A stretch of DNA of 64,000 nt from a virus (IMGVR_UViG_3300042922_001018); one strand, 5' to 3'. Shown: positions 6,188 through 63,738, counted from the stretch's first letter. Notes: generated from the sequence alone by a model not told the origin. Made by a program: numbers and translations.

Positions 6188-6196
6188 TGTAGGCGG
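6188..6196 (-). promoter_or_regulatory. CCGCCTACA-N7-ATG motif
   Basis: 7 nt upstream of a tagged ORF start. Confidence 0.8.
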
Positions 6197-7270
6197 TCAA
6201 GCGACCGCGCCATTCCATACGCGCTGGGCGAAAGCCATCTCGTCCCCGTCGCAGTCAGCCTGGTACGGGCCGCGCCACGTAGGGACGATGACCTTCGCCA
6301 TGCAGTCGGCCAGCAGTTCCAGCCCGGCATTCCCCGTGGTGAACAGCGCAGCCAGCGTTGGGGAGTCGATGAGCGCCCAGTAGTTCTTGAACTGAATCTG
6401 ATGAGCGTACTCGTGAGCCATCGGCCCCATCCAGTAGCCCTTCGAGTTGCCTGCGACACGATTCGCTACGATGACGCGACCATCCGGGTGAGCACACGCG
6501 ATAGCCGCTGCCATCTCACATACGATGTCCGCCCGCTCTAGATGCACCCATCCGCCGCCCACTGCGTCTAACGCAGAACGAGCGCCTGCCAGAACGGGGT
6601 CTGTGGCAGGCGCTGCGTTTGTATTCGCGGAAGGGTCAGGTGTCGGTGGAGGCTCCTCGTTCGGGTCTAGGCCTTCACGCTGCTCCCGTTCCAGCTCTTG
6701 CTGTTCTTGTTCAGCGCGAAGACGTTCCTGCTCCGCGTCGTATTCCTGGACTTCGGTCCGCAGAACGTTCATCGCGTCTCGTACTGTAGCCGTGGAGTTC
6801 GCCACGACGGCTGGATTCTCGCGTTCAGCCGCTACCCGGTCCTGCTCAGCAGAGACCGTTCGCTCGAACCCGGAGACATCCACCTTCGGCCGAGCCTCAT
6901 CGAGGAGAGCTGCGGCTTCGCCCAACGTGGTGAGGAAGCCTTCCCGGCTAGCGAGAAGCTCCTCCTGCGTCGCGATAGTCGCGTCTTTCTCCGCCACCGC
7001 CGACTCTAGCTCAGCGATACGCGCCTCAGCGTCCCCCGTCTGTTGACGGGCTTCCGCCGAAGTCGATTCCAGCTCAGCCACGCGCGCACTCGCCGAAGCG
7101 TACTGCGCGCCGAAGAAGATTGCAGCGATGATTGCGATGACTGCCACAGCGAGCATGGCAGCGAACATTGTCACCTTGACCCGAGAGAGTCGCTTCTCCT
7201 GGCGACGACGCTTCGCCCCGTCATGGTTGACGAGGATTTGCGCCGAGCTGTCGTCGAATAGTTCGCTCAT
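6197..7270 (-). CDS. Membrane-anchored coiled-coil protein with a C-terminal HExxH metallopeptidase-like domain
   Basis: N-terminal TM helix, long coiled coil, AHEYAH...ELLADC. Confidence 0.8.
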   Translation of the reverse strand: MSELFDDSSAQILVNHDGAKRRRQEKRLSRVKVTMFAAMLAVAVIAIIAAIFFGAQYASASARVAELESTSAEARQQTGDAEARIAELESAVAEKDATIATQEELLASREGFLTTLGEAAALLDEARPKVDVSGFERTVSAEQDRVAAERENPAVVANSTATVRDAMNVLRTEVQEYDAEQERLRAEQEQQELEREQREGLDPNEEPPPTPDPSANTNAAPATDPVLAGARSALDAVGGGWVHLERADIVCEMAAAIACAHPDGRVIVANRVAGNSKGYWMGPMAHEYAHQIQFKNYWALIDSPTLAALFTTGNAGLELLADCMAKVIVPTWRGPYQADCDGDEMAFAQRVWNGAVA

Positions 7271-7698
7271 ACTCCAGCCAGGCCGTCATCTCGGTCGTCG
7301 GAGCCGGGGCGGCGAGGCTTCAGTAGCCCCTTCTGGTGAGACTTCTCAGCCTCAGCGTCAGCGAGGCGACGCTCGTCGTCCACCGGCTGTGGGGTGCCGA
7401 ACCCGGTGATGAGCGCCTCATCCTTCGAGCCGAAGGGAAGCGCCTTGAAGCGGAACCGTTCGAACTCGTTGAGGACGCGCGAGACATCCTGCGCGGAGCC
7501 GTGAACCTCGATGATGGCGATGCGCGTCTGACTGTCCTTCCAGCCGTACGCGCCATGCGCCGAGTAGTTCACAGACGACCCGTCGAGAACGCTCCAGACG
7601 CGCCACAGGCGACGAAGGTTCGCGGCAACCCGAATGAACCTGGGGGTGGACAGACTCGTGTCTGCCTCGGGGCGCTCCAGAACAGCAGCCTCAGACAT
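7267..7698 (-). CDS. Hypothetical protein
   Basis: Start MSEAAVLERP with GAGGA SD; overlaps its neighbours within an operon. Confidence 0.7.
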   Translation of the reverse strand: MSEAAVLERPEADTSLSTPRFIRVAANLRRLWRVWSVLDGSSVNYSAHGAYGWKDSQTRIAIIEVHGSAQDVSRVLNEFERFRFKALPFGSKDEALITGFGTPQPVDDERRLADAEAEKSHQKGLLKPRRPGSDDRDDGLAGV

Positions 7699-8305
7699 AA
7701 GCGATTCCTCTCGCGCTGGGGGTAAGAAGCTCGGGGATAACCGTCGCCCACTCACTCCAATGATACATCCTACGACCCGGCGTTGCGACGTTGTAGGGGT
7801 GGTCGAAAACGACGTGCTCCCAGAAGGGCGCGATGGCGCCCGTGATGACCGGCTTGTCATCGAGCAGCACGTCACCGAACTCGGTGGTCTTGTCCCACTT
7901 CAGCACGGCGCTATGCGCCAGTTCCGGGGAGAAGTCACGGCCGAGCGCGAGAATCTTGTCGCTCGCGCACGTCGGGTTCGAGGCCGTCGGCGCAGAGCAG
8001 ACCTTCGTCAGGACGCCCTGCATCGCCGAGATTTCAGCCATGGCCTCCTGCGCGCCTTCCATGACCGGAATGCGCTTGTAGAAGTGCGGCAGGTCGAAGA
8101 CGAGCTGCTTCTGCTCCTGGGTCAGAAGCGGAGCGTTGACCATGGGGTTGTAGTCCAGACGCGCCAGGCGGTCCGGCACCGGTACATGCGGGAACCGCTG
8201 TCCTACTTCCTCCCAGAACAGAGCGTCCCAGTCGTAGAGGACATTGTCCATGTCCACCAGGAAGATGAACGGCCGGTCGCTGAACGGCCTAATGATGTCG
8301 TTCAC
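7691..8305 (-). CDS. 5'(3')-deoxyribonucleotidase (HAD, NT5C family)
   Basis: DMDNVL motif I, LLDDKP, FDHPYN. Confidence 0.9.
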   Translation of the reverse strand: MNDIIRPFSDRPFIFLVDMDNVLYDWDALFWEEVGQRFPHVPVPDRLARLDYNPMVNAPLLTQEQKQLVFDLPHFYKRIPVMEGAQEAMAEISAMQGVLTKVCSAPTASNPTCASDKILALGRDFSPELAHSAVLKWDKTTEFGDVLLDDKPVITGAIAPFWEHVVFDHPYNVATPGRRMYHWSEWATVIPELLTPSARGIAYV

Positions 8306-9235: not shown

Positions 9236-10056
9236 CAGACTCCTACCAGGCCCATTCTCTTGGGCTGTACCATAGTGTACACGTATTCGTCGGGTACGTT
9301 ATCGGCGACGATGCGCGCGGCGACACGAGGGTCGGTGACGCCGATGCCACGAAGGCGTGTCGCCTCGGCCGGGGAGCATCCTGCGGCGACCAGGAACGGA
9401 AGTGCCTCGATGAGGTCGTCACGCTCGAACCCGTGCGGACCGGTCTCGCAGAGAGACGCCCACGCAAGGGAGTCCCGGCGAGGACCGCGCACCATACCGA
9501 GCTGTGCCAGAATCTTGCGCATCGTGTCCGTGGACAGGCGGCTGAGGAAGGCCTGAGCGTTGTACCCCGACTTAGCCTCCTCGTGGACTTCGTAGAGGCG
9601 CTCGAAGTAGTCGTACGGGATGTTGAACTCAGCGACCGTCTGCACGAACGCTTCGCCGAGAACGTGGGAACCATTCATCACGCGGCTGAGGGTGGCTTCG
9701 AACCATGTCTTCGCTGCCTTCTCGTCCATGCCGAAGCACAGAACCAGAGGGTGAACATCCGGGTTCGCCGCGAGAAGCCGCTCGGTGAAGCCGACGAGAC
9801 CGTCAGCGGCGGCAGCGTTGAACGCGGCTTCATTCTTCAGATAGCCCCGCGCCCATGCTCGGGCCGGGCGAACGCTGGTATGCCGACGATTGCGAAGAGC
9901 GACGCGAAGCCCGGTGTAGAAGTTCGACTTGATGAACCGACGCTCGGCGTAGAAGGCATCTTCCGTCTTGTCCGGACGCATGCCGACGATGACCTGCTTC
10001 ATCAGGTCCAGCGGCGCCAGGGGAATCGAAAGCACCATCTTCGTCATGAGGTTCAT
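9235..10056 (-). CDS. Hypothetical protein, G[VI]P.EY-repeat family
   Basis: C-terminal NVPDEY; TATTCT-N7-ATG leaderless start. Confidence 0.75.
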   Translation of the reverse strand: MNLMTKMVLSIPLAPLDLMKQVIVGMRPDKTEDAFYAERRFIKSNFYTGLRVALRNRRHTSVRPARAWARGYLKNEAAFNAAAADGLVGFTERLLAANPDVHPLVLCFGMDEKAAKTWFEATLSRVMNGSHVLGEAFVQTVAEFNIPYDYFERLYEVHEEAKSGYNAQAFLSRLSTDTMRKILAQLGMVRGPRRDSLAWASLCETGPHGFERDDLIEALPFLVAAGCSPAEATRLRGIGVTDPRVAARIVADNVPDEYVYTMVQPKRMGLVGV

Positions 10057-10662: not shown

Positions 10663-11406
10663 TCAGCGGCGACGGCCGTGCGACTCGGAGTCGCGCTGGG
10701 CAATACGCGCGTCCCGCTCAGCCATGAAGCTGTCGAACTCGTCAGTCTGACGGAAGTCGCGCAGGTCTTCACGGAGCTGCTCCAGCTCGGCCAGGATACG
10801 GCTGTCGTACGGCTCGAAGCCTGACTGGTCGAAGCCTGCATCCGTGCAGAACGCGTATCGTGCGCGTACTGTTTCTACGGTGCCCTGGGCACCACCGATT
10901 GTGACGGGCGACTGACGAACCTTCGCCGCCTCGATGTCGCTTCCCGTGAGGTCAGCGTAGTACCACATCTGGAGCGCGCGAGCAACCTCGCGCGCCTCAT
11001 GACGGGGGATTTCCGGCTCGTAGGAAGCCGCCCACTGCTGTTCGGCACTCTGAGCGCCACTGGCGCGGGCGCTATCGACCTTGGTAATCCAGGCAGCAGG
11101 GTTCGCCTCCTGCTGGACCTCCCAGTCCGGGTTCATGTCGTAGAGCGCCTGTCCTGCCGCGTCCGCGCCGCTTTCGATGTAGCGGGTGCGTGCGATGGCG
11201 TAGGAGACCCGCATGGCGTCCAGCGCCGACGAGGGAACCGGGACACTCTTCCAGAACCGGATGACCTGCTCCGCGTTGGTGTAGCTGGCAGGCGGGTACT
11301 CGAAGCTTGCGTCGCCGAACTCGTTCAAGCCGATTTCTGGAGCAGAGCCTTCCTTCTCCGAGAACTGGCCGGTGGCGGTACGGGGTTGCATGTCACTCAT
11401 GGTCAT
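10663..11406 (-). CDS. Tagged protein (QPRTATGQFSEKEGSAPEIGL), unknown function
   Basis: Shared tag plus upstream motif. Confidence 0.85.
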   Translation of the reverse strand: MTMSDMQPRTATGQFSEKEGSAPEIGLNEFGDASFEYPPASYTNAEQVIRFWKSVPVPSSALDAMRVSYAIARTRYIESGADAAGQALYDMNPDWEVQQEANPAAWITKVDSARASGAQSAEQQWAASYEPEIPRHEAREVARALQMWYYADLTGSDIEAAKVRQSPVTIGGAQGTVETVRARYAFCTDAGFDQSGFEPYDSRILAELEQLREDLRDFRQTDEFDSFMAERDARIAQRDSESHGRRR

Positions 11407-11413: not shown

Positions 11414-11422
11414 TGTAGGCAG
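11414..11422 (-). promoter_or_regulatory. CTGCCTACA-N7-ATG motif
   Basis: 7 nt upstream of ATG 11406. Confidence 0.75.
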
Positions 11423-15434: not shown

Positions 15435-15728
15435 TTACCGTACGACCGAGTTGACGATGGTGATGAGGAAGCCGACGATGAACTGAAGAACACCGATGAT
15501 GGCCGGAATGACGAGCTGTGGACCAGCCAGTGCGCCCGCGAGGACGACGGCAATCCACGGGAAGCCCTGCATGCCAGCCCCGCCACCCTTGCGTCGCTGC
15601 CACAGCCATACGACCACGGAGATGACGAGGATGACCACACCCAGCACCGTCATGAACGTCAGAACGTTCGACGGTACGACTGCGATGAGACGGTTCCAGC
15701 CGTCCACCCAGTTGAGGCCACTACCCAT
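15435..15728 (-). CDS. Small hydrophobic two-TM protein, possibly pilin/VirB2-like
   Basis: 97 aa, two hydrophobic helices separated by a basic loop; GAAAGG SD. Confidence 0.55.
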   Translation of the reverse strand: MGSGLNWVDGWNRLIAVVPSNVLTFMTVLGVVILVISVVVWLWQRRKGGGAGMQGFPWIAVVLAGALAGPQLVIPAIIGVLQFIVGFLITIVNSVVR

Positions 15729-15774: not shown

Positions 15775-15783
15775 TGTAGGCGG
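15775..15783 (-). promoter_or_regulatory. CCGCCTACA motif heading the membrane-protein operon
   Basis: Exact intergenic copy ~46 nt upstream of ATG 15728. Confidence 0.65.
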
Positions 15784-15930: not shown

Positions 15931-16713
15931 TCAGCAGCCCGCCAGAACCGAGGTGAGCGCCTGCTGGTCCGCGGCCGGAATCGTCAGCTCATACTTCTGG
16001 AGGACGGACGTGAAGTCAACGGCATATGTGCAGTGGTAGGAAGCCGAAGCGGGCATCCACGTGGACGGTCCCTGGTCCGACTTGGAACCGTTCTGCGGTC
16101 CGTCCACGGCCTTCAAGTTGATGGGGTCGTTGGCGAAGAGGATGCGCGTGTCCTGGTCCCAGCTCTCAGCGCCGTTCTGCCAAGCCCAGCTCAGCGGGAT
16201 GACGTGGTCAATCTGGACAGCCATCGAGTCGCCCGTGTTCTTGCCGAAAGCGTTCGTGTGAACGAAGTCGATGGTCTTGCCGGTGTACACATCGTTCAGG
16301 ACGCCGACCTGGACCTCGCAGTCGCCCCGGAAAGTCTCGAACGAAGCGAAGTCACGCTTCAGGATGTCGTTGCGCGTGTCGCAGCCGTTGCCGTCCACGT
16401 CAATCCATCCGTCGCCGAACTGCGCCTTGCGGTCATAGTCCGTGCTCGGGTCAGCCTGCGTCGCCGGAAGCGAAGCGACGAATGCGCTTGCCTCATCGTA
16501 GATGTCGCCCGCGACCGGCTGCTCAGGAGCCGTGGACTCGACAGGGGCCGGAACGACCGCCGACTCGGTCGGCGCCGGGGAGAAGGTCTCGACCGCGGCG
16601 GGGCGCTGTGCCTGCATCGCGTTGAACCCGGCGACAGCGACCAGGACGGCCCCGAGGAACACCAGGATGCCGATGATGGCGACCGGGCGGAAGAAGCGGT
16701 GAGAGTTCGTCAT
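15931..16713 (-). CDS. Secreted or anchored HNH nuclease (DUF1524-like)
   Basis: N-terminal TM; GCDTRNDILKRD, QIDHVIPLSWAW, FANDPINL..V...NGSK. Confidence 0.88.
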   Translation of the reverse strand: MTNSHRFFRPVAIIGILVFLGAVLVAVAGFNAMQAQRPAAVETFSPAPTESAVVPAPVESTAPEQPVAGDIYDEASAFVASLPATQADPSTDYDRKAQFGDGWIDVDGNGCDTRNDILKRDFASFETFRGDCEVQVGVLNDVYTGKTIDFVHTNAFGKNTGDSMAVQIDHVIPLSWAWQNGAESWDQDTRILFANDPINLKAVDGPQNGSKSDQGPSTWMPASASYHCTYAVDFTSVLQKYELTIPAADQQALTSVLAGC

Positions 16714-24186: not shown

Positions 24187-25401
24187 TCAGCCCTTCACGC
24201 AGAGGCGTGTCTCCAGGAACGCTTCGACCTCGACCAGCTCAGACTGCGCGCGGATGACCGCGTGCACGTCCTTGTAGGCCTCCGGAAGCTCATCCAGGAT
24301 GCCCGCGTCACGGCGCGACTCGATGTTCCCGAGCTGGCGCTTGATTTCTGCCTGACCGTCATCGTCGCCCCGGAACTTCTCCTTCGCCTTGTTACGCGAC
24401 AGCACGCGACCGGCGCCGTGTGATGCGGAGAAGAACGACTTCGGGTTACCCAGCCCACGGACCACGTAAGAACCGGTCGCCATCGAGCCAGGGATGAGCG
24501 CAAGCTCCCCCTTCGTCGCACGGATAGCGCCCTTTCGGGTCACCAGCATGCTCTCGCCGTCGATGACCTCCTCAGACACGTAGTTGTGGTGGACGTTGAT
24601 GTCCGGCTCGAACGTGACCTTCTTCGAGTCGCCGTAGTGCTCCACGACGGCCCGCTTCACGAGCGCCATCATGATGGCACGTGAACGGAGAGCGTACTCC
24701 TGCGCCCACATGAGGTCGTGGCGGTATGCGTCCATCTGCGCCGTGCCCGAAAGGAACACCGCCATGTCTGCATCGGCGATGCCTTCGTTGTGCGAAAGCC
24801 CCTTCGCAACGGAGATGTGGTAGTCCGCCAGCATCTTCCCGATGTTGCGCGAGCCGGAGTGCAGCGTCAGCCAGACATTGCCGTCGGCATCGGTACAGAC
24901 CTCAATGAAGTGGTTGCCTCGGCCGAGCGTGCCAATCTGCGACTGCGCCTTGCTCTCGATACCACGGACGTACGGCGTGAGGTCGCGGTATGCGCCCCAG
25001 AACTTGTCCCAGCCGCGGTCCAGACCGTACCGACGCACGTTGACGGGCGTGTCGTGGCCCTCGTGGCCGAGAGGAATCGCGCCCTCGATGGCAGCGCGCA
25101 GCGCAGGAAGACGCTCCAGGTCTTCGACCTTCAGGGAAGTCTTCGTCGCCACGACGCCGCATCCGATGTCCACGCCGACCGCAGACGGCGCAACAGCCTG
25201 CTTCATCGCGATGACAGAGCCAACCGTGGCTCCCTTACCAAGGTGCACATCCGGCATGACGCGGACGCCGTGGACCCACGGCAACTCGGCGATGTTCCGG
25301 AGCTGCTGTAGAGCGGCCTGCTCCACATCCTGCTCATGTGCCCACATCAGGGTAGGCGCGGCGGCGCCGCGAAGCGTTACAGGGAACTCGTGAACAGTCA
25401 T
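24187..25401 (-). CDS. rtcB: RNA 3'-phosphate/5'-OH ligase RtcB
   Basis: MPDVHLGKG, GVDIGCG, GNHFIE, HSGSR, HHNY, SHGAGR, DELPEAYK. Confidence 0.97.
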   Translation of the reverse strand: MTVHEFPVTLRGAAAPTLMWAHEQDVEQAALQQLRNIAELPWVHGVRVMPDVHLGKGATVGSVIAMKQAVAPSAVGVDIGCGVVATKTSLKVEDLERLPALRAAIEGAIPLGHEGHDTPVNVRRYGLDRGWDKFWGAYRDLTPYVRGIESKAQSQIGTLGRGNHFIEVCTDADGNVWLTLHSGSRNIGKMLADYHISVAKGLSHNEGIADADMAVFLSGTAQMDAYRHDLMWAQEYALRSRAIMMALVKRAVVEHYGDSKKVTFEPDINVHHNYVSEEVIDGESMLVTRKGAIRATKGELALIPGSMATGSYVVRGLGNPKSFFSASHGAGRVLSRNKAKEKFRGDDDGQAEIKRQLGNIESRRDAGILDELPEAYKDVHAVIRAQSELVEVEAFLETRLCVKG

Positions 25402-25434
25402 GCGGCCCACGATAGCACAAAATCGTGGCGCTCG

Positions 25435-26461: not shown

Positions 26462-26769
26462 GCCGCGAACAGCTCGAACTCTTCGAACTCGACTGCGCCG
26501 CCACGGACATCGAACTCCACAATCTTCCTGGGGAGGACGACACGGAGCGGGGCGTTCGGAAGCGGCGGGCCGTGGACAATGAGCTTCTCACCCTCATCCA
26601 CCCAGTCAGGGATGCGGACGACTCGGCTGCCGTAGCTTGTCTTGCGTCCGAGCGGGTCCAGCAGCGCGATTACCAGCTCGTCGCGCGTTTCAGGGGTAAC
26701 GATTGTCATGTTCACAGTGTACCTTTCGCCAGCAACTCTGCTGGTCACTTGTCCTTCGAATCGAGCCAA
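26458..26769 (-). CDS. Hypothetical protein
   Basis: ORF within an operon; start uncertain. Confidence 0.6.
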   Translation of the reverse strand: MARFEGQVTSRVAGERYTVNMTIVTPETRDELVIALLDPLGRKTSYGSRVVRIPDWVDEGEKLIVHGPPLPNAPLRVVLPRKIVEFDVRGGAVEFEEFELFAA

Positions 26770-27764
26770 GACAGGAGAGCCTCGGCCTTTCGCTGCTTCT
26801 GCGTGAAGACAGTTGCCGCACGGGTCGCTTCGAGTCCATCACGCAACGCACTCGAACGGGTCGCGTATCCATTCTTCGCGAGGGACTCGATTTCCTCCTG
26901 GTACGGTCCGCTCCACTCGTCGCCCGAGAGGGAGCGGGCTACGGCGATGGCCTCTGCGTCCGTTGGCGCTACCGTCGTACGCTTCGGTGAGTCGGCGATT
27001 GCACCTGCGTCCAGCCCTTCAGCGTCCTTCAGGGCGGTCCAGCGGTCGCTTGCAACAACGGCCTCATCGAGCTGTTCGCGAAGGTCCGCGTATGCGTAAG
27101 GGCTGCCGTACGTTCCGGGGTCGTGCTCGTTGACGAACTTGATGAACTGCATACGGTCTTCTGACGTGTTCGCGACCAGGGAAGGGGAGAACTCTTCCGG
27201 CTTGTACGTCGTCGAGAACTCCAGCATGACGCTGTTCCAGCTCTCCCCGTTGTCGATAATCTCGGCACCGAACCGGTCCCGGAAGAACTTCTCGACGATG
27301 GGGTAGGCGTCATCGAGTTCGTCGGGCGTGAAGTCATCAGCCCAGAGCATGTCCTCGTAGTAGTTTCCGGTGAGGAGGATGTCACCGTCGTCTGTGAGAC
27401 GCGCATACGGGTTGGTCATCTCGCCACCGGAAGGCTCCCACTCGACATCGCTCAGGTCCATGTCGTAGCCGTCTTCGCTGGGAAGGTCGAAACGCTTCTC
27501 CTTGAACTGTGTCGGTAGGCCCCAATCGCGCTCCCCACCCTCGCGCATGTTCTCGATGACTTCGTCCAGAGTCTCGCGCGGTTCGGTGGCCGGGATACCG
27601 AGTTGGGCGCGAATGCCTTCCTCAGTGAAGGTGTCCCCCTGGTAACGGTACAGCGTGTTCTCGTTCGTCGGAGGGGAAGTCAGCTCGAACTCGGGAGCGG
27701 CGCCAAGCTTCTCAGCGAAGGTTCCGTCAGTCGCGCGCGGGTGGTCGGTCTCAGAGAAAGTCAT
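26745..27764 (-). CDS. Tagged acidic protein (MTFSETDHPRATDGTFAEKLGAAPEFEL)
   Basis: Tag plus upstream motif. Confidence 0.9.
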   Translation of the reverse strand: MTFSETDHPRATDGTFAEKLGAAPEFELTSPPTNENTLYRYQGDTFTEEGIRAQLGIPATEPRETLDEVIENMREGGERDWGLPTQFKEKRFDLPSEDGYDMDLSDVEWEPSGGEMTNPYARLTDDGDILLTGNYYEDMLWADDFTPDELDDAYPIVEKFFRDRFGAEIIDNGESWNSVMLEFSTTYKPEEFSPSLVANTSEDRMQFIKFVNEHDPGTYGSPYAYADLREQLDEAVVASDRWTALKDAEGLDAGAIADSPKRTTVAPTDAEAIAVARSLSGDEWSGPYQEEIESLAKNGYATRSSALRDGLEATRAATVFTQKQRKAEALLSWLDSKDK

Positions 27765-27771: not shown

Positions 27772-27780
27772 TGTAGGCGG
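27772..27780 (-). promoter_or_regulatory. CCGCCTACA-N7-ATG motif
   Basis: 7 nt upstream of ATG 27764. Confidence 0.8.
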
Positions 27781-28489: not shown

Positions 28490-28498
28490 TGTAGGCGG
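28490..28498 (-). promoter_or_regulatory. CCGCCTACA-N7-ATG motif
   Basis: 7 nt upstream of ATG 28482. Confidence 0.8.
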
Positions 28499-29051: not shown

Positions 29052-29060
29052 TGTAGGCGG
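29052..29060 (-). promoter_or_regulatory. CCGCCTACA-N7-ATG motif
   Basis: 7 nt upstream of ATG 29044. Confidence 0.8.
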
Positions 29061-29171
29061 TTGTAGGAACCCTACAACAGAAACCGGCCATCCTTGTACA
29101 CGTCAAACAAGCCCGTGCAGAATAGTGCCAGCAGCGGCACTATTCTGCACGGGCTTGTAGGAACCCTACAA
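29061..29171. repeat. Two copies of the 17-bp palindrome TTGTAGGAACCCTACAA flanking a 23-bp perfect hairpin
   Basis: Copies at 29061-29077 and 29155-29171; hairpin arms at 29107-29129 and 29136-29158. Confidence 0.9.
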
Positions 29172-30472: not shown

Positions 30473-30481
30473 TGTAGGCAG
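30473..30481 (-). promoter_or_regulatory. CTGCCTACA-N7-ATG motif
   Basis: 7 nt upstream of ATG 30465. Confidence 0.75.
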
Positions 30482-31116: not shown

Positions 31117-32082
<966 letters not shown>

Positions 32083-36248: not shown

Positions 36249-36257
36249 TGTAGGCGG
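36249..36257 (-). promoter_or_regulatory. CCGCCTACA-N7-ATG motif
   Basis: 7 nt upstream of ATG 36241. Confidence 0.8.
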
Positions 36258-38473: not shown

Positions 38474-38493
38474 GGTGTCCTTTCTCGTGCTCA

Positions 38494-39177
38494 TCACACT
38501 GTCTTCTTCGTGGTTGTCCGACGTTTGGCCGTCGAGGTCTGGGTTTGTCCGTCCGGCCCGTCAGGAGCCTGGAGAGGCGACACTGTCACTACCCCGGAGA
38601 CGAGAATCCCGTGAGAATCATGGTCTCCTGACGCTACGAAGTAACTCGGAGCGGTGAGTACCTGTAGGCGGCTGTCCGTCTTCTTCGGAACGTACGGCGC
38701 GACCTTCATCACAAGTTCAATCCACCGCAAGCGAGGCTTCGGTGGAGCACTATTCTCGTCTTCGTCTACCCTACCACTGACCTCGCCAGAGCCGAACTCA
38801 GGTGCCCAGAAAAGCCCGTCATTCCACCGAAGTTGGCCAGCAGGAACCCATCCAGCGGCGTGACCGGCACCTTTGAGGTCCAACCCGGTGCCCACTATCC
38901 GTGGGTCTGGGTCGGGCACCTTGACAACGCCGGATACTGCAACAGGCATCGTAGCGGGAAGCAGATAGGTCGCGCGATTGGTGGTGACCGCAACGATGTC
39001 CGACTCCACCTCCTGCACGGAATACTGCTCACACTCCGCCGGACCGTCCTCATCGAAAGATAGCACCGGCTGCCCGCCCAACTCGTCAATGAGAACTGGG
39101 GTACCGATTGACTGCCGAGTCAGCCCCATCTCCTCCGACTCTTCTTCAGCTACCGGCACGAGAGCGTAGTGAGACAT
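38494..39177 (-). CDS. Hypothetical protein between nrdI and nrdE
   Basis: 227-aa ORF coupled to nrdI. Confidence 0.7.
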
Positions 39178-40965: not shown

Positions 40966-40974
40966 TGTAGGCGG
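40966..40974 (-). promoter_or_regulatory. CCGCCTACA-N7-ATG motif
   Basis: 7 nt upstream of ATG 40958. Confidence 0.8.
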
Positions 40975-42735: not shown

Positions 42736-44265
42736 ACTGAGGCGGTTCCGGAGCCAGGCAACGGCTCCTGCCTCATCCGTGAACTCGCCATCGTCTTGCG
42801 CTTCACGGGCAGCATCCATGATGGGACGGAAATCAGGTCCGGGCTTCATCCCTTCCGCCATCAGATGCTCCCCTCGAAGAAGACCCGGCGCCGGACGCTC
42901 AGCAGAAATCTCGCGAGACCGAGCAACCCAGTCCCATGCCGGAGTCTGAGGGACCGCGTCCTGGTCGAAACGCTTCTGAGCGCTCTCCAGGGCGCCGCTG
43001 CGGCCCCGAACGTCGGCTTCGGCGACGAGCGCCCACTCTTCCAGTGTCGCTGGCTCCAGGCGCCTTACAAGGCGTCGCAGTGCCGCATCCCCTGTCTTCC
43101 CGGCCTTCTGCCACGAGTGCAAGAACATGTGTTCTCCGACCAGCGGTGCCACACGAGCCTGTACCACTTGCGGGAACCCGGAACGCTTCAGGAGTTCGAC
43201 GGCCATCGGGGTGCCGTCCTCCGCATGCCCGGCCGAAGTGATACGACCATCGTCGTGTGTGATGGTAGTAGTCGCCTTGCCGACATCATGCAACATCGCG
43301 GCCATCACGACAACCGTTCGGTCGTACCCTTCCAGCCCTCGCTCCGTGGCCAGCCGTGCCGCCACATCAGCGGCCTGCGACTGGTGCTCGTACACATCAG
43401 CCTCAGGGTGCCAGCGTACGTCCTGTGGCAGACCGATGGTTGCGTTCAGCTCGGGGAAGTGCTCCACCCAGCCGGTCTCCTTCAACACACGAAGACCGGC
43501 GGACGGCTCGTCCGAGCTGATGAGCTTCACGAACTCACCGTAGACACGCGACGCGGGCAGCTCGTCGAAACGGTCCTTGATGCCCCGACACAGAGCGACA
43601 GTATCCGGGTGCATCGTCATACCGAACCGTGCTGCGAACTGCATACCTCGCAGCACCCGCAGCGGGTCATCGTCGAACGCGTCTGAGGTGTGGCGCAGGA
43701 TGCCGTCTTCCAGGTCGCGCTCACCGTTGAACGGGTCGATGACCTCTCCGGTATCCGGCTCCCACCCGATAGCGTTGATGGTGAAGTCGCGACGTGCGAA
43801 TGCGTCATGCGCGTTCATCGTCGGGTCCACAACTACCTCGAAGCCTCGGTGCCCGGCGCCGGTCTTGGACTCCCGTCGCGGGACCGAGACATCGTAGTCC
43901 TCATCGCCGACAGTGACCTTCAGCACGCCGAATGAGGCACCCACTTCAGAGACGTTGCCGACCTTCGCCAGATGCGGGATGAGGTCACGGAGTCCCTTCA
44001 CTTCGTGGACCTCAATGTCGATGTCGTGCCCTGCTCCTCCAGCGTCACCCCGAAGAGCGTCACGGACGGCACCTCCGACAATGAGCGGCTTCCCTCCGGC
44101 AGCTCGGCACGCCTGAAGGATGTCTTGTGCCACAGGGGTCAGTGGGACAAGGTTCTGCTCGTATCGAGTGTTCATGAGGCTCACTTCTGGGCCGGTTCCG
44201 CTCTTATGAGAGAATCGGCCGTTCTCTTCGCGCGGCTGGATGGTGTTCATGTGCTCGTTGTCCAC
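42730..44265 (-). CDS. cca: Tagged CCA tRNA nucleotidyltransferase with HD domain
   Basis: [43 protein letters not shown]; N-terminal [21 protein letters not shown]; GTG 44265 is 7 nt after the motif variant. Confidence 0.92.
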
Positions 44266-44272: not shown

Positions 44273-44281
44273 TGTAGGATG
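44273..44281 (-). promoter_or_regulatory. Degenerate motif CATCCTACA-N7-GTG
   Basis: CCTACA core at the same spacing. Confidence 0.55.
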
Positions 44282-44286: not shown

Positions 44287-44778
44287 GTGCAACCCTTCAT
44301 CCCGCCTGCTGTCACCCAGTTCGAACCCTTCACCGCTCTCGCGTGGGGTCTGATGCTGGCGGCGGTCCCGCTGTTCTTCCTGGTCGTGACCGCGCTGATG
44401 CGACGGAAGCTCGCTTTCGTCACCGCTCTCGGGTTCGTGGCAGTCACGTTCGCGGCAGGAGCTTTCCTGGTGTCGCCTCTCGACGCTGAGCGTCAGACCA
44501 CTGCGACGCGCAACAGCGTCGTCAGCGAGTGGCTGGACGAGAACTACCCTCAGTACGGTGGCGCCGAAGCTCTGCTTTCGCACTTCAACGACGGGTCAAC
44601 CTTCAAGGCGACTGCCGATGACGGCAAGCAGCGCACGATGCACTTCTCGTTCTCCCCTGAGTCCGGGTATCGTCTCATCGCGCTCACCGACAGCAAGCCC
44701 GCTGATGTGGTCGTGAAGGACGACCGTCTCGATGTTGCGGGTCAGCTCGCTGAGAAGGAAGCCGCAGCTCAGGGCTGA
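44287..44778 (+). CDS. Two-TM membrane protein
   Basis: Two hydrophobic helices; TAGGAT -10 element upstream. Confidence 0.75.
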   Translation: MQPFIPPAVTQFEPFTALAWGLMLAAVPLFFLVVTALMRRKLAFVTALGFVAVTFAAGAFLVSPLDAERQTTATRNSVVSEWLDENYPQYGGAEALLSHFNDGSTFKATADDGKQRTMHFSFSPESGYRLIALTDSKPADVVVKDDRLDVAGQLAEKEAAAQG

Positions 44779-45620
44779 CGGGCCATCCGAGCAACGGATT
44801 CCACCGACATGCGGTAGAGCTTCCCGTTGCTCGCGCGCATGATGATTTTCGTGGTGCCTGGCTCATGGATGCTCAGTCGTCCGTACTGGCGGTGGACGAA
44901 GATGTCGCCGTACACGACGTACAAGCCATGCCGCGGGTAGTTCTTCCGCGCTACCTTAGTCGGGTCCGCCTCACGTGGGCGTTCTGCCTTGATGAGGTCT
45001 GCGATGGCATTCAGGTCGCCGAGCGATTCTTCGCCGTCCTGGTCGGTGAGGATTGCGGTGCTACGTCGGATGTTGCCCACTGTGTACCGCTTCATCCCGT
45101 TGGCGAACTTGTCGCCTGAGTAAACGGGGGTGCCGTCCGTGGCGTATCCGACTTGACGCTTCATCCCGTTCTCGCGCTGGACTTGGCGAATAGCGGCTGT
45201 GGCTTCGACAGTGGTCTTGCCCTCGTATCCGAGACGCTTGGCCATCGCTTTCCAGCGTGGACCATGCTGCGCGCCGGGGGTGAGAGCGTGCGCAATCTCG
45301 TGGAGCATAGTCTGCCGGAACTCTTCACGGCTGCGGTGTTCGAGAACGGGTCCAGAGTAGGAGATGACCTTCTTCGCGTAGTGGCACTGGCCCTCGCGAG
45401 TCGTGGCACGGTCGAAGGCGAAGGTCCAGCCCTCCGCGGTAAGCCCGTAATGGTCGAGCATGTCCTCAGCAAGGGCAGCCGCTCGCGCGCGCGAGATAGG
45501 CGCGTCTGTCTTCAAACTTGCGTCGCCTTCGTAGCGCAGCGAGACTTCGGGTGTGCCGCCGGTCTTCTCGGAGAAGCGACCATCGTCATCCCGGCGCACA
45601 TCTGTTTCGGAGAAGGTCAT
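44769..45620 (-). CDS. Tagged SprT-like zinc metalloprotease
   Basis: Tag, then W.F.FD.A..R.G.C, LHEIAHAL...HGPRWK. Confidence 0.9.
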   Translation of the reverse strand: MTFSETDVRRDDDGRFSEKTGGTPEVSLRYEGDASLKTDAPISRARAAALAEDMLDHYGLTAEGWTFAFDRATTREGQCHYAKKVISYSGPVLEHRSREEFRQTMLHEIAHALTPGAQHGPRWKAMAKRLGYEGKTTVEATAAIRQVQRENGMKRQVGYATDGTPVYSGDKFANGMKRYTVGNIRRSTAILTDQDGEESLGDLNAIADLIKAERPREADPTKVARKNYPRHGLYVVYGDIFVHRQYGRLSIHEPGTTKIIMRASNGKLYRMSVESVARMARQP

Positions 45621-45627: not shown

Positions 45628-45636
45628 TGTAGGCAG
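45628..45636 (-). promoter_or_regulatory. CTGCCTACA-N7-ATG motif
   Basis: 7 nt upstream of ATG 45620. Confidence 0.75.
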
Positions 45637-51327: not shown

Positions 51328-51903
51328 ATGACGAACTTCCGCATGCACAAGGCGCTCTCCTGGCTGAAAGACGCTGAAGTGCATCTGGTGACGGTTCACG
51401 GGTCACACCTGTATGGCCTGGCGCACGCAGACTCGGACAACGACATGTACACGGTCGCTGACCTCCCGATGTACCGCCCCGTTCAGTCGGTGGACGGTGA
51501 CGATGACAACACCATCGTCCCGCTCGATGCATTCTTCGACGCGTGCTGGCATGGACAGCCGAAAGCGCTCGAAGCGCTGTGGTCGCCGACGGCCGTGAAG
51601 AGTCCGCTGCTGGTAGAGTTCTCGCGTACGTTCCGTGTGGGTTCAGGGACGGCGCAGGACTCCTTCCGCCGCACGCGTGAGCATCTGTTCCGGGGTGAGA
51701 ACATCAACAAGATGAAGAGCCGTCGTCACGCTCTTCGGCTGGCGGTCCAGCTCCGGTCCATCATGGAGACCGGCCGTTTCAATCCGGTGCTGAACGACCA
51801 CACGAAGTTCTTGCTGACTCGTGTCGCAACTCGATACGACACACAGGAGACGTTCATCCCCGTGATGAACGCATGGTTCGACTGGGCTTCAGACGTTCAC
51901 TGA
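51328..51903 (+). CDS. Pol-beta superfamily nucleotidyltransferase (RlaP/NrdC.11-like)
   Basis: GSHLYGL...DSDND motif. Confidence 0.85.
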   Translation: MTNFRMHKALSWLKDAEVHLVTVHGSHLYGLAHADSDNDMYTVADLPMYRPVQSVDGDDDNTIVPLDAFFDACWHGQPKALEALWSPTAVKSPLLVEFSRTFRVGSGTAQDSFRRTREHLFRGENINKMKSRRHALRLAVQLRSIMETGRFNPVLNDHTKFLLTRVATRYDTQETFIPVMNAWFDWASDVH

Positions 51904-53147
51904 ACTCGGCTCGGCGCGTTCCCGCTGCCCGGCCAGGTGACGTTCTTCTCCAGCTCGCGAGCTTCCCTCGTCATGTACTCGCGCATTCCCCGTCGCTGCA
52001 TGACTGTGTGCACGATAGCTCGGTCCGCTTCGATGAGTTCCTTCATCTTCGCTATCCTGGTCGTCTTCTCTTCGAGCTTCTTCGCGTCGAAAGAGATACC
52101 GAGAGGGGTGTCGAGCGCGCTGGTCAACGCATGCGCGAGGGCTGGAGGAGTCGCCGGGTCGGCAAGAGCTTCGTTGGCTGCGGCAACTGCTTCGGTGGCT
52201 TGGACAGCCTTGACGTACCCTTCCCATTCACGGTGGGGGTTGCTGTACTTGTCGTAGTACCAGACGTTCGTGCTCGCCGCTGAAGTCTGGTCGAGGTCAC
52301 CGTTCAACACGGCGAGCTTCGCATCGAGAGCATCGAGATGCTCCTGGCTGGGAAGTCCGCGGGTCTGGAGTCCGGAGGGGAGCCGGTTGTTGTCCTTCAA
52401 CAAGTCCTCATGGCCGAGCTTCTTGGTCTGCTCGCGCAGCTCTGTGATGCGTTCGACTGTGACCGGGTTCCGAGGGAACACTACCCACGGAGCCGTGTGA
52501 CCTTCGGCGATAGATTTCTGAAGGTTCCGCGCCTGCTCCTGGTTCCGCGCCTGAGCCGAAGTCTCGAACAGCGCTTGGGCTGCGTCACGGTCCACCTTGA
52601 AGGCGAAGTTCGCGTAGGTACTGTCTAACGTGTTGTCTTCATCCACAATGAAAGCGGGATGCTTTTGTAGGTTCTCTACAACGGCGGCAAGACAATCGGA
52701 GTCGTGATTGTCCCCATCGTCACAGTAGCAGTACCGGCCACCGGCTCCATTGCGCGTGTGGACCATGGCAACGGGAGTACGGCCGGTCCAGCTATCTCCT
52801 GCACGCACGGTTGGCCACTTTTCAAGCGGCTTACCAAGGTCGGGCCAGGCTAGCCACGGACCGCTTTCGAGGCGACCGAAGTCCAACTTCAGCTCGTTGT
52901 TGAGATGGTCTTCCATAGTCGTGAGCTGACGCTCACCCAGTGACTCGAACTTCTCCGTCCACCGCCCGATGATGCTCTGCCCTTCATGGTCGAGCGGTAC
53001 GTCATCCACGGTGAGGCCGTATCGCTCCAGTGCAGCCACCAGTTCGGGGGCCGCGGTAGACACGAGTGTTACCTCGGCGGCGGCGCCGGTTCTCTCTGAG
53101 AACCTCCCGGCGGTGTCACGCAGGACAGCAGTCTCGTCGAAGGGCAT
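51897..53147 (-). CDS. Tagged protein (MPFDETAVLRDTAGRFSERTGAAAEVTL) with a H..CxC...H..C motif
   Basis: Start re-assigned to ATG 53147, 8 nt after CCGCCTACA. Confidence 0.85.
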   Translation of the reverse strand: MPFDETAVLRDTAGRFSERTGAAAEVTLVSTAAPELVAALERYGLTVDDVPLDHEGQSIIGRWTEKFESLGERQLTTMEDHLNNELKLDFGRLESGPWLAWPDLGKPLEKWPTVRAGDSWTGRTPVAMVHTRNGAGGRYCYCDDGDNHDSDCLAAVVENLQKHPAFIVDEDNTLDSTYANFAFKVDRDAAQALFETSAQARNQEQARNLQKSIAEGHTAPWVVFPRNPVTVERITELREQTKKLGHEDLLKDNNRLPSGLQTRGLPSQEHLDALDAKLAVLNGDLDQTSAASTNVWYYDKYSNPHREWEGYVKAVQATEAVAAANEALADPATPPALAHALTSALDTPLGISFDAKKLEEKTTRIAKMKELIEADRAIVHTVMQRRGMREYMTREARELEKNVTWPGSGNAPSRVQ

Positions 53148-53155: not shown

Positions 53156-53164
53156 TGTAGGCGG
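53156..53164 (-). promoter_or_regulatory. CCGCCTACA-N8-ATG motif
   Basis: 8 nt upstream of ATG 53147. Confidence 0.75.
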
Positions 53165-56592: not shown

Positions 56593-57030
56593 TCAAGTCT
56601 CGATGACGTTCAGCGCTTCGCGCAGCATCCGGAGTTGGTCTTCTGTGGCTTCGACCGGCGCTTTCGTCTTGTCGTAGAACTGACGCGACGGAATAACGCC
56701 TCGTACACCTCCACGAGGGTCTGCTACGTCCCCTGGGCGCCGTGGGATGAAGTGCCCGTGTGCGTGCATGATGGTCTGCCCGGCAGCGGGTCCACAGTTC
56801 CAGCCGATGTTGAAGTCGGTGACTCCGGCGGCGCGATGAGCGCGAGCGAGAGCGTCGAAGACGCGATGGGTGTCGTATCGCTCCTCTTCGCTCAGTTCGA
56901 AGTAGTCGGAGCGGTGCTCGACGGGGATGACAAGCACGTGTCCAGGTGCGACAGCATACCCGTCGAAGACGACGTAGACGGAGCCGAAGCGCTCTCCCGT
57001 GACGTTGCAGAAACGGCAGTCAGTGCTCAT
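56593..57030 (-). CDS. HIT family hydrolase
   Basis: CRFC, PGHVLVIP, AGQTIMHAHGHFIPR, PRGGVRGVIP. Confidence 0.93.
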   Translation of the reverse strand: MSTDCRFCNVTGERFGSVYVVFDGYAVAPGHVLVIPVEHRSDYFELSEEERYDTHRVFDALARAHRAAGVTDFNIGWNCGPAAGQTIMHAHGHFIPRRPGDVADPRGGVRGVIPSRQFYDKTKAPVEATEDQLRMLREALNVIET

Positions 57031-60189: not shown

Positions 60190-60906
60190 TCAGGAAGCCC
60201 AACGGGTTCCGCCTGTGTACCCGTGCTTGTTCTTCTCGGCACCCCACACGTAGTCCGCGTAGCGCTCCTCGCCTACCAGAACCGTGAGGACCGTCTTAGA
60301 CTCGTGTGCGAACGCGAGTGCGGCTTCCGCTTCGGCGTACGGGTGGGGACCAGGCTCCGGCGAGTAGCCGTACTCGCGTGCGAAGTCTTCCACGTCGTCC
60401 ATCGAGAACTCTTCGGCGACCTGAGCGGTCTCGGCGAGCGCGCCCATGGAGTCGCCGACAGAAGGCGTCTCAGTGACTCCGAGGCCGGTGCCGTAGTCGA
60501 TTTCCGCCTGGCGGAGGAAAGGACCGTCCTTCACAGAGAGGCGGCACTTGTAGTCGTAGGACGGAGTGCCGTCATCGAACAGCGTCGCGCCTTCGACACG
60601 TTCAGCGACACCGCGAATCTTGTCCTGCTGGGAGAGGAAGTTCGCACGCTCGAACACGTCATCGAACCCGGTCTCGTCCGCGTTGCTGGAAACACGGACG
60701 GTTCCGTTCGGAAACCTGGATGCGCGCAGTGCCGTCTTGCCGGGGCGCATCGGCCGCTTCTCGCCAATCTCCATGACAGGCTTCTGAGCCTCGCGAGAGT
60801 GCAGCGCATCGCTGAGCGATACCTCGGGCGCAGTGCCGTTCTTTTCGGAGAACCGTCCGCCCTGGTCGCGTACTACCTTCGCTTCTTCGAATGCAAGATT
60901 GGTCAT
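60190..60906 (-). CDS. Tagged protein (FEEAKVVRDQGGRFSEKNGTAPEVSL)
   Basis: ATG 60906 lies 7 nt after CCGCCTACA. Confidence 0.88.
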   Translation of the reverse strand: MTNLAFEEAKVVRDQGGRFSEKNGTAPEVSLSDALHSREAQKPVMEIGEKRPMRPGKTALRASRFPNGTVRVSSNADETGFDDVFERANFLSQQDKIRGVAERVEGATLFDDGTPSYDYKCRLSVKDGPFLRQAEIDYGTGLGVTETPSVGDSMGALAETAQVAEEFSMDDVEDFAREYGYSPEPGPHPYAEAEAALAFAHESKTVLTVLVGEERYADYVWGAEKNKHGYTGGTRWAS

Positions 60907-60913: not shown

Positions 60914-60922
60914 TGTAGGCGG
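60914..60922 (-). promoter_or_regulatory. CCGCCTACA-N7-ATG motif
   Basis: 7 nt upstream of ATG 60906. Confidence 0.8.
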
Positions 60923-60940
60923 GTCATGCCGTTGCGGGCA

Positions 60941-61189: not shown

Positions 61190-61221
61190 CGTTCAGTCTA
61201 CGTCTTCCTCTTCGCGGAGCA

Positions 61222-61935: not shown

Positions 61936-61977
61936 GATTGTGATTCTACCGTTCCTGTTTGGGCGTGGTGAGCGTGG

Positions 61978-62775
61978 TTACTTGTCGAGTTCGGCAGAGC
62001 GTTCCATCGCCTGCTCGAAGAGGATTCTGCGCTGAAACGGGTCCAGCGGGGTCTCATCGGTGAGAGCAGCGAACTGCTCCGTGATTTCGCTCCGGTTTCC
62101 GCTCTCGCGGAAGGCGTTGCTGTCAGGAAGGCGACTGTATTCTGCGCGCTCACCTTCAGCCCGTAGTTCACGGCTGCGGCGCGCTGCCATGATGGTCGCA
62201 GCCTTCAGGTAGAGCGCTCGCTGGTCAGGTTCGAGCGGCCCTGTCGCCTGCTCACGGATGAGGTTCTTGTACGTCACGTCAACGTCGCGTAGCTCCGACA
62301 CGCGTGCGAAACGTTCGCCGGTCTCGTCCATGTAGTCCGCGGCGCCGTAAGTCCCGTACATCATCCGCGTCTCGAAGTTCGCCGCCTCACGTCGGCGGCG
62401 CTCGGCGTAGTTCAGGTGCGGAAGCCCCAGCGCATCATCGGCGCCTTCGACAGCCATCTGGACAACCTGCGACTCAGGGTCCATGGGCTTGTGGTTCAAG
62501 AAGACGCGGGTGGGGCGTCCTTCACCGTCGATGTCTGCGCTGTACTTCACGGTGCCGTCGTCCTCGATGAACTCTACGAAGCTGTCTCGTCCGGCAGCGA
62601 CCGGCTCGTGGACCGTGTAGTTCGCAACGCCCCACGCCTGGGCGATACCGGCCGCAGCAATGTGTGCGGGCGTCTGTACTTCTGCGGTGTCGAGTGCGAC
62701 CTCCGGCTGCGCGCCGGTCTTCTCGGAGAACTTGCCGGAGGTGTCACGGCGCACCTGTGCTTCGTCGAATGACAT
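61978..62775 (-). CDS. Tagged protein (MSFDEAQVRRDTSGKFSEKTGAQPEVAL)
   Basis: Tag; starts 8 nt downstream of another tagged gene. Confidence 0.88.
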   Translation of the reverse strand: MSFDEAQVRRDTSGKFSEKTGAQPEVALDTAEVQTPAHIAAAGIAQAWGVANYTVHEPVAAGRDSFVEFIEDDGTVKYSADIDGEGRPTRVFLNHKPMDPESQVVQMAVEGADDALGLPHLNYAERRRREAANFETRMMYGTYGAADYMDETGERFARVSELRDVDVTYKNLIREQATGPLEPDQRALYLKAATIMAARRSRELRAEGERAEYSRLPDSNAFRESGNRSEITEQFAALTDETPLDPFQRRILFEQAMERSAELDK

Positions 62776-62783
62776 GGCGCGCC

Positions 62784-63299
62784 TCAGTCCTGGGTCTCGA
62801 ACGGGCGGTACGCGACTGCCCAGCCCTCTTCGTAGGTCTGACCCGTTTCCGGCTCGTCCTCGTCCGGGTATGAGGCGTAGACGGCTACGTAGTAGCCGGG
62901 GCGTTCCAGGATGTCTCCGGCCATGCGTCCGCCGAGCTGCTCGGAATCATGCATCCAGGGGCCGTCGTAGCCGTGCTGCCCGGTGTACCCGGAGAGCAGC
63001 TCCCACCCTTCGATGCTGCGGTGGTACGGGTCTACGTTGAAGCAGTCTGGGGCGTGCTTGTGCTGTACGCCGTCGTACACGTCGCCGTTGTCGCCGACTG
63101 CGATGACGTGGTCGAACTCCATCAGGTTGGACAGGTTGCCGTCTTCACGAAGGTCTGGACCGTCGTACTTCTTCCAGTCTGAGGAAACTGCGGGAAGCTC
63201 GACAGGAGTATCACCCAGGTTGACCTCTGGGGGCCAGCCGTTCTTCTCAGCGAACTTTCCGCCGTTGTCGCGTGCTACTGCCGTCTCGTCGAATGCCAT
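62784..63299 (-). CDS. Tagged acidic protein (MAFDETAVARDNGGKFAEKNGWPPEVNL)
   Basis: ATG 63299 lies 7 nt after CCGCCTACA. Confidence 0.88.
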   Translation of the reverse strand: MAFDETAVARDNGGKFAEKNGWPPEVNLGDTPVELPAVSSDWKKYDGPDLREDGNLSNLMEFDHVIAVGDNGDVYDGVQHKHAPDCFNVDPYHRSIEGWELLSGYTGQHGYDGPWMHDSEQLGGRMAGDILERPGYYVAVYASYPDEDEPETGQTYEEGWAVAYRPFETQD

Positions 63300-63738
63300 G
63301 CTCATCTGTAGGCGGCTCCTGCTCCTTCTTCGCAGCTACTTCTGCCCGCATCCATCGCGGGACCAACCGCAGCGGCGGAAGCTTCTCAGAGACAAGCCAG
63401 ATGGCGAAAGCGAGCGGGATGAGCGCGAGTAGGAGAGCGCCGAGTACGTAGAAGAGATGGGTGTTGCCTGTCATCTCGTCCGGACCTTCCGGCCAGAGCG
63501 CTTTGTGCAGCGCGCTCGCGAGGATGAGGATGTAGAACGGTGTGATGAGGTAGATGGTCCCCAGTGGGATACCGGGGAGGCGCAGCAGTCGCTTTGGCCG
63601 AAGGACACCGAACCAGATGAGTCCAGCGAGGATTTGCAGCGCAACAACGCCCCATGTGAGCCACGGTGGCATGGCGGAGATGACTTCAGCGAGCGCTTCG
63701 AGGAAGCGCTGAGCGCGCTCGGTACGTTCCACGCTCAA
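63247..63738 (-). CDS. Three-TM membrane protein
   Basis: Hydrophobic helices; 3' end overlaps the next gene. Confidence 0.7.
   Translation of the reverse strand: MSVERTERAQRFLEALAEVISAMPPWLTWGVVALQILAGLIWFGVLRPKRLLRLPGIPLGTIYLITPFYILILASALHKALWPEGPDEMTGNTHLFYVLGALLLALIPLAFAIWLVSEKLPPLRLVPRWMRAEVAAKKEQEPPTDEHGIRRDGSSTRQRRKVR
63307..63315 (-). promoter_or_regulatory. CCGCCTACA-N7-ATG motif (inside the upstream CDS)
   Basis: 7 nt upstream of ATG 63299. Confidence 0.75.

Follow-up and report, generated by a model that had tools for sequence, protein, structure and literature searches.

The 64,000-nt stretch of viral DNA analysed here (IMGVR_UViG_3300042922_001018; the whole stretch is referred to as the window) has a GC content of 61% and carries nearly all of its genes on the minus strand. 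It belongs to a giant plasmid-like element of a soil actinobacterium, and one of its proteins is recorded on a contig of 450,372 bp. An array of 17 transfer RNA (tRNA) genes occupies positions 38-4897, and a Pfam/PHROGs scan of the gene content identified a class Ib ribonucleotide reductase (RNR), RtcB, an SNF2 helicase and a PD-(D/E)XK nuclease. Two recurrent features concern us here. The first is a nine-base word, C[CT]GCCTACA (the box), that lies shortly before a set of genes, and the second is an N-terminal protein segment, MxFxExxxPRxxDGKFAEKxGxAPEVxL (the tag), with which most proteins of that set begin. An initial annotation of this DNA had described the box as an element-specific leaderless promoter that defines a regulon of tagged proteins, and had supposed that a late or transfer programme might be switched on through it.

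C[CT]GCCTACA was found as 15 exact matches, all on the minus strand and hence on the gene strand, as the initial annotation had stated for its own list. Across 100 shuffles the word turned up 0.52 times on average and never more than 3 times. No 9-mer of the window is more over-represented than CCGCCTACA (12 copies, compared with 0.29 expected under an order-2 Markov model); the 9-mers ranked below it are tRNA arms and codon strings, and no second private k-mer class was found within the window. Twelve of the 15 exact boxes precede a start codon without a Shine-Dalgarno (SD) sequence, 11 at a spacing of 7 nt (N7) and one, at 53156, at 8 nt (N8). The start codon is ATG in each of the 12 cases and opens a long open reading frame (ORF) with high GC content at third codon positions (GC3).

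Eleven of these 12 ORFs begin with the tag (alignment A1). Taken in descending order of coordinates, and all on the minus strand, the first is a 171-aa gene (62784-63299) behind the box CCGCCTACA at 63307..63315, N7 from the ATG at 63299. It is followed by a 238-aa gene (60190-60906) behind the box at 60914..60922, N7 from the ATG at 60906, and by a 416-aa gene (51897-53147) behind the box at 53156..53164, N8 from the ATG at 53147. The remainder are all at N7: a SprT-like gene (44769-45620) behind CTGCCTACA at 45628..45636, a gene for an ArdC-N plus zincin peptidase protein (39885-40958) behind the box at 40966..40974, a 243-aa gene (29734-30465) behind CTGCCTACA at 30473..30481, genes of 179 aa (28505-29044), 184 aa (27928-28482) and 339 aa (26745-27764) behind boxes at 29052..29060, 28490..28498 and 27772..27780 respectively, a 247-aa gene (10663-11406) behind CTGCCTACA at 11414..11422, and a 92-aa gene (5902-6180) behind the box at 6188..6196, which comes right after the stop codon of 6197-7270. 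A degenerate box, CATCCTACA, stands N7 before a GTG (44265) at 44273..44281 on the same strand and, as had been annotated, is in frame with a tagged ORF, the gene for a CCA-adding/polyA-polymerase plus HD protein (42730-44265). The tag heads unrelated domains; those that are known are ArdC-N/zincin peptidase, SprT-like and CCA-adding/polyA-polymerase plus HD.

The window holds 16 tagged genes, of which 12 have a box (11 exact and one degenerate), and the association of box and tag is strong (Fisher p ~1e-9, ~90 genes). The initial annotation had counted the motif ahead of 13 of 17 tagged genes. All 12 exact sites that it listed are real and are spaced as described (11 N7, one N8), but the tagged genes number 16 and the gene behind box 36249 is untagged. 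The four tagged genes without a box start at 62775, 5902, 26461 and 61935. Those at 62775 and 5902 (5348-5902) are directly behind box-led genes and that at 26461 is further down its gene string, so that three lie downstream of box-led genes as annotated, while 61935 has the host-type start TAGAAT-N7-ATG.

Three exact copies had been overlooked (5265, 15775 and 38663), none of which is at N7 to a real start. The box at 5265..5273 is followed by a 93-nt leader with AAGGAGA and a 50-aa ORF (5019-5171), then by a hairpin (4926-4952) and the tRNA array; box 5265 was considered as the driver of that array and dropped, as the 50-aa ORF with its SD sequence, and then the hairpin, come first. The box at 15775..15783 is followed by a 46-nt leader with GAAAGG and a 97-aa membrane-protein gene (15435-15728). 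No start stands at N7 from the box at 38663..38671, which is ~165 nt ahead of nrdE (36311-38497) and falls within or behind a 227-aa ORF of doubtful status. Together with the box at 36249..36257, N7 before the ATG of an untagged 273-aa gene (35420-36241), these are the four of 15 exact boxes with untagged targets, i.e. the 36241 gene, the 50-aa ORF, the 97-aa membrane protein and the nrdE leader, all on the minus strand. It is mostly right to say that the box-led class consists of tagged-protein genes: 11 exact boxes lead such genes, but the class is mainly and not exclusively of this kind, and the box does not strictly define it.

Alignment of 44 box sites from the window and its metagenome relatives gave 1.5-2 bits of information across the nine positions of the box itself and ~0 bits at -45 to -1 relative to it. 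A conserved -35 element is absent, leaving a single conserved element near -10, and the spacer between box and start shows a weak G preference at -4 to -2 and no SD sequence, in keeping with what had been annotated. Within the same alignment, the codons of the tag vary synonymously and the box is invariant. Relative to the start codon, base -1 is C or T and +1 is A in 12/12 window sites. The box occupies the place that is taken, elsewhere in the window, by a host-type TANNNT-N6/7-RTG arrangement at ~31 starts (the six quoted by the initial annotation were all found), and base -1 is a pyrimidine in 26 of these 31 as well. The hexamer within the box, TACAnn, has a T at position 6 in only 2/12 window sites (53156, TACAAT; 11414, TACACT), with no preference for T at this position across the 44 aligned sites, and it would end 5 nt before the ATG, compared with 6-7 nt for the 31 host-type starts.

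A signal at the level of RNA would also place a conserved word close to start codons. In this explanation the operons are long, and the box RNA, 7-9 nt before AUG, replaces the SD sequence or binds a translational activator, repressor or RNase of the element. The distance of 7-9 nt is typical of SD-to-start spacing (7.7 +/- 2.7 nt in C. glutamicum, PMC3890552), and boxes often lie directly past an upstream stop in same-strand strings. Spacing within a lineage is, however, far tighter than SD spacing, the box lacks complementarity to the anti-SD sequence, and a pyrimidine at -1 is a feature of transcription start sites (TSSs) rather than of ribosome-binding sites. No conserved RNA fold was found from the box to +75 (consensus -1.3 kcal/mol, no covariation). 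Exact boxes also occur 46-165 nt before genes, and two of these genes have a clear SD sequence of their own at the end of the leader (AAGGAGA behind box 5265, GAAAGG behind box 15775). A related element in the Varibaculum chromosome, described below, has a box at 1,942,496 that is followed by AAGGAGG and then by ATG at +21. Absence of the SD sequence at the fixed spacing and its presence at longer distance is predicted by a promoter with a TSS 7-9 nt downstream, and not by a translational signal. We consider an RNA-level role decidedly unlikely. The related idea that the box complements a segment of 16S rRNA was rejected, as the variant boxes of the relatives would not keep complementarity.

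The surroundings of the boxes bear on the same question. A box follows each of the three longest perfect gene-strand hairpins of the window (23-24 bp stems) within 0-84 nt. The minus-strand hairpin at 36305-36257, with a 23-bp stem, lies at the end of nrdE and abuts box 36257. The hairpin at 29158-29107, also on the minus strand, stands 47 nt before box 29060 and was scored by a consensus scan as a 20-pair terminator with a T tail. The third (minus strand, 15919-15867, 24-bp stem), 84 nt before box 15783, has directly upstream of it a nuclease gene of the GmrSD C-terminal type (15931-16713) that is led by a leaderless promoter of the host type. By a T-tail rule, terminators show no overall enrichment at boxes, and the association is limited to the long hairpins. 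Such strong hairpins ahead of boxes should end upstream transcripts, a further point against an RNA-level signal in long operons. Additionally, the box-led gene at 53147 is divergent from a plus-strand gene at 53202, itself led by a TTGACG-17-TAGACT promoter, with 55 nt between the two starts. Each hairpin-preceded or divergent unit consequently requires its own promoter, and no conserved word other than the box is present there.

On these grounds the box is probably the core of an element-specific promoter that consists of a -10 element only, is read by a factor other than SigA and gives rise to leaderless mRNAs. This reading draws on position, composition, context and conservation, and not on mapped transcripts. 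In the mechanism that we propose, RNA polymerase carrying a dedicated non-SigA factor would bind the box at ~-16 to -8 and start transcription at the purine 7-8 nt past it; the specificity factor would most likely be an element-encoded, divergent sigma. For 12 of the 15 copies the start purine would be the A of the ATG, yielding a leaderless mRNA that is translated without an SD sequence, a common situation in Actinomycetota. The other copies would be the same promoter with a longer leader, using an ordinary SD sequence at 5265 and 15775. Proteins that bear the tag would thereby be produced as one set.

The box and the tag are also found together outside the window. A tag-based metagenome scan yielded 13 loci. 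In 10 of the 11 high-GC loci CCGCCTACA-N7-ATG precedes the matched tagged gene, the flanks being unrelated and the spacers variable; ~29 box copies were counted across these loci, almost every one ahead of a tagged ORF and on the gene strand. An exact box is also kept within coding sequence (...IEDIRLHLAEYKAYGE...) in loci L005 (2587-2595) and L008 (1912-1920), where it may reflect an internal promoter or a chance match within a string of conserved codons. A second form, CCGCCAACA-N9-ATG, precedes genes whose products begin MGNNNFExKHPRxxDGKFxEK in two low-GC loci and in the chromosome of Varibaculum cambriense UMB0796 (CP126959.1), a cultured, human-associated actinomycete. There, 12 boxes and 14 tagged genes are confined to ~110 kb (1.866-1.976 Mb), and one box is on the opposite strand together with its gene. 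This ~110-kb integrated element also holds a DNA polymerase III alpha gene, a Dam-type methylase, an IS605-family transposase (OrfB/TnpB type) and an rve-type integrase.

With the tag as tblastn query we found plasmid pS16 of Curtobacterium sp. MCSS17_016, likewise a cultured strain (NZ_CP126255.1; 545,759 bp). In pS16, CCGCNCAYA-N7-9-ATG occurs at 91 sites compared with 2 in the control, on both strands and almost always at N8, and base -1 is a pyrimidine at ~89 of the 91. Where checked, the variant boxes of pS16 and Varibaculum are oriented toward the downstream gene. In a sample of 70 kb of the plasmid, a single base separates two classes: CCGC[GA]CACA heads tagged genes in 17/17 cases, whereas the genes behind the CATA form, CCGCGCATA, are untagged in 8/8 (tagged, 0/8). 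Nine further copies of CCGCGCATA(G) have no start at N7-N10 and are leadered or unassigned. One base in the pS16 box hence appears to part two private gene sets, which argues for sequence-specific readers. An ...ACA end accompanies the tag set in three lineages (CCGCCTACA, CCGC[GA]CACA and CCGCCAACA), and the CACA/CATA split ties this end to the tag regulon in all three. Proteins encoded behind CCGC[GA]CACA display at least three tag dialects (HPRxxxGKFTEK; AARExARxxDGKFGxQ; GGxF...). The untagged box-led protein of the window (35420-36241) begins MSKNRENVVWQSEDGTWGRGF, with a faint likeness to the pS16 ARENARxxDGKFG dialect, and its N-terminus may be a decayed tag.

These relatives also bear on whether a factor of the host could read the box, i.e. 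an alternative host sigma, SigA with an activator from the element, or a stoperator-like operator lying over a weak SigA promoter. No sigma was found among the scanned window proteins or, by Pfam, in the Varibaculum island, site 53156 can be read as TACAAT-N6, and palindromes of the type TTGTAGG/CCTACAA, which contain the core of the box, occur beside box 29052 and in loci L010 and L011. Against a host factor, the T required by SigA at the sixth hexamer position is missing from 10 of 12 sites, and a -35 element is absent. The box is moreover rare outside these elements, with all 12 copies of CCGCCAACA in the 135 kb of Varibaculum chromosome examined falling inside the ~110 kb, and the two one-base variants of pS16 with their different gene sets need two readers. 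Stoperators of mycobacteriophage L5 are asymmetric repressor sites that stand in one orientation to transcription and block elongation. The box resembles them as a short asymmetric word present in many copies in one orientation to the genes; unlike the box, whose spacing is N7 for 11 of the 15 window copies and which keeps its place in nearly all copies of the relatives, stoperators do not keep a constant spacing to start codons. In our view a host factor is an unlikely reader.

The palindromes themselves look like an additional layer of control. A 17-bp palindrome, TTGTAGGGTTCCTACAA, is present in two minus-strand copies (29155-29171 and 29061-29077) that flank terminator 29158-29107, the second of which abuts box 29060. 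Repeats of the form TTGTAG(G)-N4-(C)CTACAA are found before a box-led tagged gene in L010 (~215-270) and L011 (~960-1015). The half-site of the palindrome and the box have CCTACA in common. TTGTAGGGTTCCTACAA is accordingly best described as a candidate operator that may exert extra control over the unit of box 29052.

Distribution at gene boundaries raises the separate idea that the box is a recombination or cassette-boundary site, conserved for DNA exchange, through which gene fronts made of promoter plus tag are moved. Boxes do lie at gene boundaries, often touching the upstream stop, and the tag is joined to unrelated domains. Most sites nevertheless have no partner inverted repeat or attC-like structure, and this idea does not account for why boxes keep so exact a distance from the ATG, why base -1 is a pyrimidine or why leadered untagged genes have boxes before them. 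We find it barely credible.

As to the reader of the box, the initial annotation had suggested a search of the element for a sigma factor, RNA polymerase or WhiB gene; among the ~60 window proteins scanned (Pfam/PHROGs), no match to any of these families was found. We considered the sole Pfam sigma of pS16 and rejected it, because it lies in a flagellar cluster and is probably FliA-like. An operon of pS16 beside a tRNA array, in which ARAGORN also predicts a transfer-messenger RNA gene, encodes a ParA-like ATPase, a WhiB protein and ORFs of 326, 101 and 281 aa. The 281-aa protein (locus L020 7286-8131, corresponding to pS16 477285-478130) is sigma-like: it has a sub-threshold match to Sigma70_r3 (E 0.006) and belongs to a family (A3) of 27 database homologs, 22 of them aligned, with an LGREP motif and no Pfam domain above threshold. 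Its AlphaFold model has a mean predicted local distance difference test (pLDDT) score of 78. When the model was compared with the PDB by Foldseek, the best 50 matches were all chains of the sigma-70 family, aligned over near full length with a template-modelling (TM) score of ~0.25, a low value that can be attributed to the flexible multi-domain layout of sigma factors. Searches of the 281-aa protein against PDB sequences, both as single sequence and as profile, returned only a weak match to FliA region 3 (E 0.17); of the searches with this protein, the fold comparison alone gave a clear result. In the Varibaculum island, a 178-aa frame aligns to the middle of family A3 with an hhalign probability of 85%; the frame upstream of it gave no alignment to the N-terminal half of A3. 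From these models and profiles, a divergent sigma encoded by the element is a plausible reader.

A polymerase rather than a sigma factor could also provide specificity, as in the jumbo phage AR9, whose non-virion RNA polymerase reads the late promoter 5'-A(-11)ACA-(6N)-U-A/G(+1) (PMC5449584). If +1 is the A of the ATG, the N7 sites of the window have the same geometry: [T/A]ACA occupies -11 to -8, so that ACA ends at -8, and after six free bases come a pyrimidine (-1) and a purine (+1). The cargo of the window is also phage-like (tRNA array, RtcB, RNR). AR9 differs in that its DNA contains uracil, the template strand is recognised and the phage supplies a multisubunit polymerase, and no such polymerase was found in pS16. 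No RNA_pol_Rpb1_2 domain was detected in the complete pS16 record with a control that matched 14/14 genomes, although very divergent homologs could escape; a T7-type polymerase domain was likewise not found there, with an uninformative control. No large unexplained polymerase-like ORF is evident. The box further adds an invariant CCGCC to the AR9 pattern, and the lineages spaced at N8 and N9 break the exact geometry. We regard the likeness to AR9 as a resemblance only, and a non-canonical polymerase encoded by the element as very improbable.

Several observations weigh against a dedicated promoter read by an element-encoded sigma. Many boxes lie 0-10 nt past an upstream stop in same-strand strings, an arrangement that fits a polycistronic mRNA with an RNA-level signal too. 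Spacing between box and ATG is 7, 8 or 9 nt according to lineage and demands a lineage-specific geometry, the 5 nt between the TACAnn hexamer and +1 are below the usual 6-7 nt, and site 53156, which doubles as a SigA-like TACAAT-N6-ATG promoter, may be dual. With respect to the reader, the scan of the window proteins for sigma, WhiB and RNA polymerase families was negative, the Varibaculum match to A3 is weak and covers the central part only, and both Varibaculum genes with a Pfam sigma-70 region 2 lie outside the island. A profile search with A3 returned no member from the 450-kb contig of the element, and the sigma-like candidate of pS16 has no tie to the box. With these points taken into account, we still judge the element-specific -10-only promoter to be the probable explanation.

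No published description of the box was found; a literature search on its sequence gave unrelated primers only. The late promoters of phage T4 consist of TATAAATA at -10 and are read by gp55 together with a sliding-clamp co-activator. They share with the box a single element of 8-9 bp in the -10 region without a -35 element, and a small sigma-type factor, which is established for T4 and here proposed. The sequences are unrelated, however, and T4 late promoters need the clamp co-activator and are not leaderless. A layout closer to that of the box is seen in the SigA-type leaderless promoters of Actinomycetota (PMC3890552, PMC4633059), where a -10 element places the transcription start at the start codon, with no SD sequence, a pyrimidine at -1 and A at +1. 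Corynebacterium commonly has leaderless promoters of the TAnnnT form (PMC3890552), and a 5'-terminal ATG or GTG is enough for translation in mycobacteria (PMC4633059). In contrast to these promoters, the box CCGCCTACA fails TAnnnT, with the T at position 6 missing in 10/12 sites, has nine invariant bases compared with three, always precedes ATG and is tied to one protein set.

For a private sigma on a large plasmid there is a precedent in SigN (ZpdN) of pBS32 from Bacillus subtilis, where Rend-seq and in vitro transcription established both the factor and its private promoters (PMC6751061). The arrangement would be similar, with a large plasmid controlling a private promoter set through its own sigma on the host polymerase, the box being known here from sequence. 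The host phylum differs, and neither a leaderless layout nor a link to a protein tag is described for SigN in the abstract of that paper (PMC6751061).

If this interpretation holds, the box represents a compact promoter class private to giant actinobacterial mobile elements, from soil Micrococcales plasmids to a human-associated Varibaculum island. Gene starts become correctable, because the box fixes the start codon. In addition, the box marks a co-regulated set that includes the ArdC-like, SprT-like and CCA-adding enzymes, and so provides a handle on the purpose of the tag. We tentatively suggest, as a possibility and with less confidence than the promoter itself, that the element family carries a portable promoter together with an address tag. 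An element sigma invisible to Pfam would read CCGC-NN-ACA and make proteins with HPRxxDGKF-type tags as one leaderless regulon, perhaps proteins that travel with the DNA or serve establishment, and one base (CACA or CATA in pS16) would sort two private regulons.

Among phages, plasmids and IMG/VR, nothing closely related to the window was found apart from the RNR genes. Megablast of the window against phages and plasmids matched the RNR genes only, a scan of IMG/VR for close relatives gave no match, and tblastn of the ArdC-like protein against phages returned distant peptidases without the tag and nothing else. An ORF of 1146 aa has a membrane segment and matches nothing in PDB or Pfam. The class Ib RNR genes are scattered: nrdI (39177-39578) and nrdE (36311-38497) are kept apart by the 227-aa ORF (38494-39177), which has a GC3 of 0.64, no family match and an internal box, and nrdF (31117-32067) is ~4 kb beyond nrdE, after unrelated genes. 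An RNA-repair-type set near the tRNA array comprises RtcB ligase, the tagged CCA-adding/polyA-polymerase-HD enzyme, an RlaP-like nucleotidyltransferase and a HIT-domain protein (24187-25410, 42730-44265, 51328-51903 on the plus strand, and 56593-57030). Finally, a small leadered ORF followed by a hairpin lies upstream of the first tRNA gene (tRNA-Trp) of the array both in the window (5019-5171, minus strand; 50 aa) and in pS16, where the counterpart encodes ~44 aa (L020 ~9673-9807).

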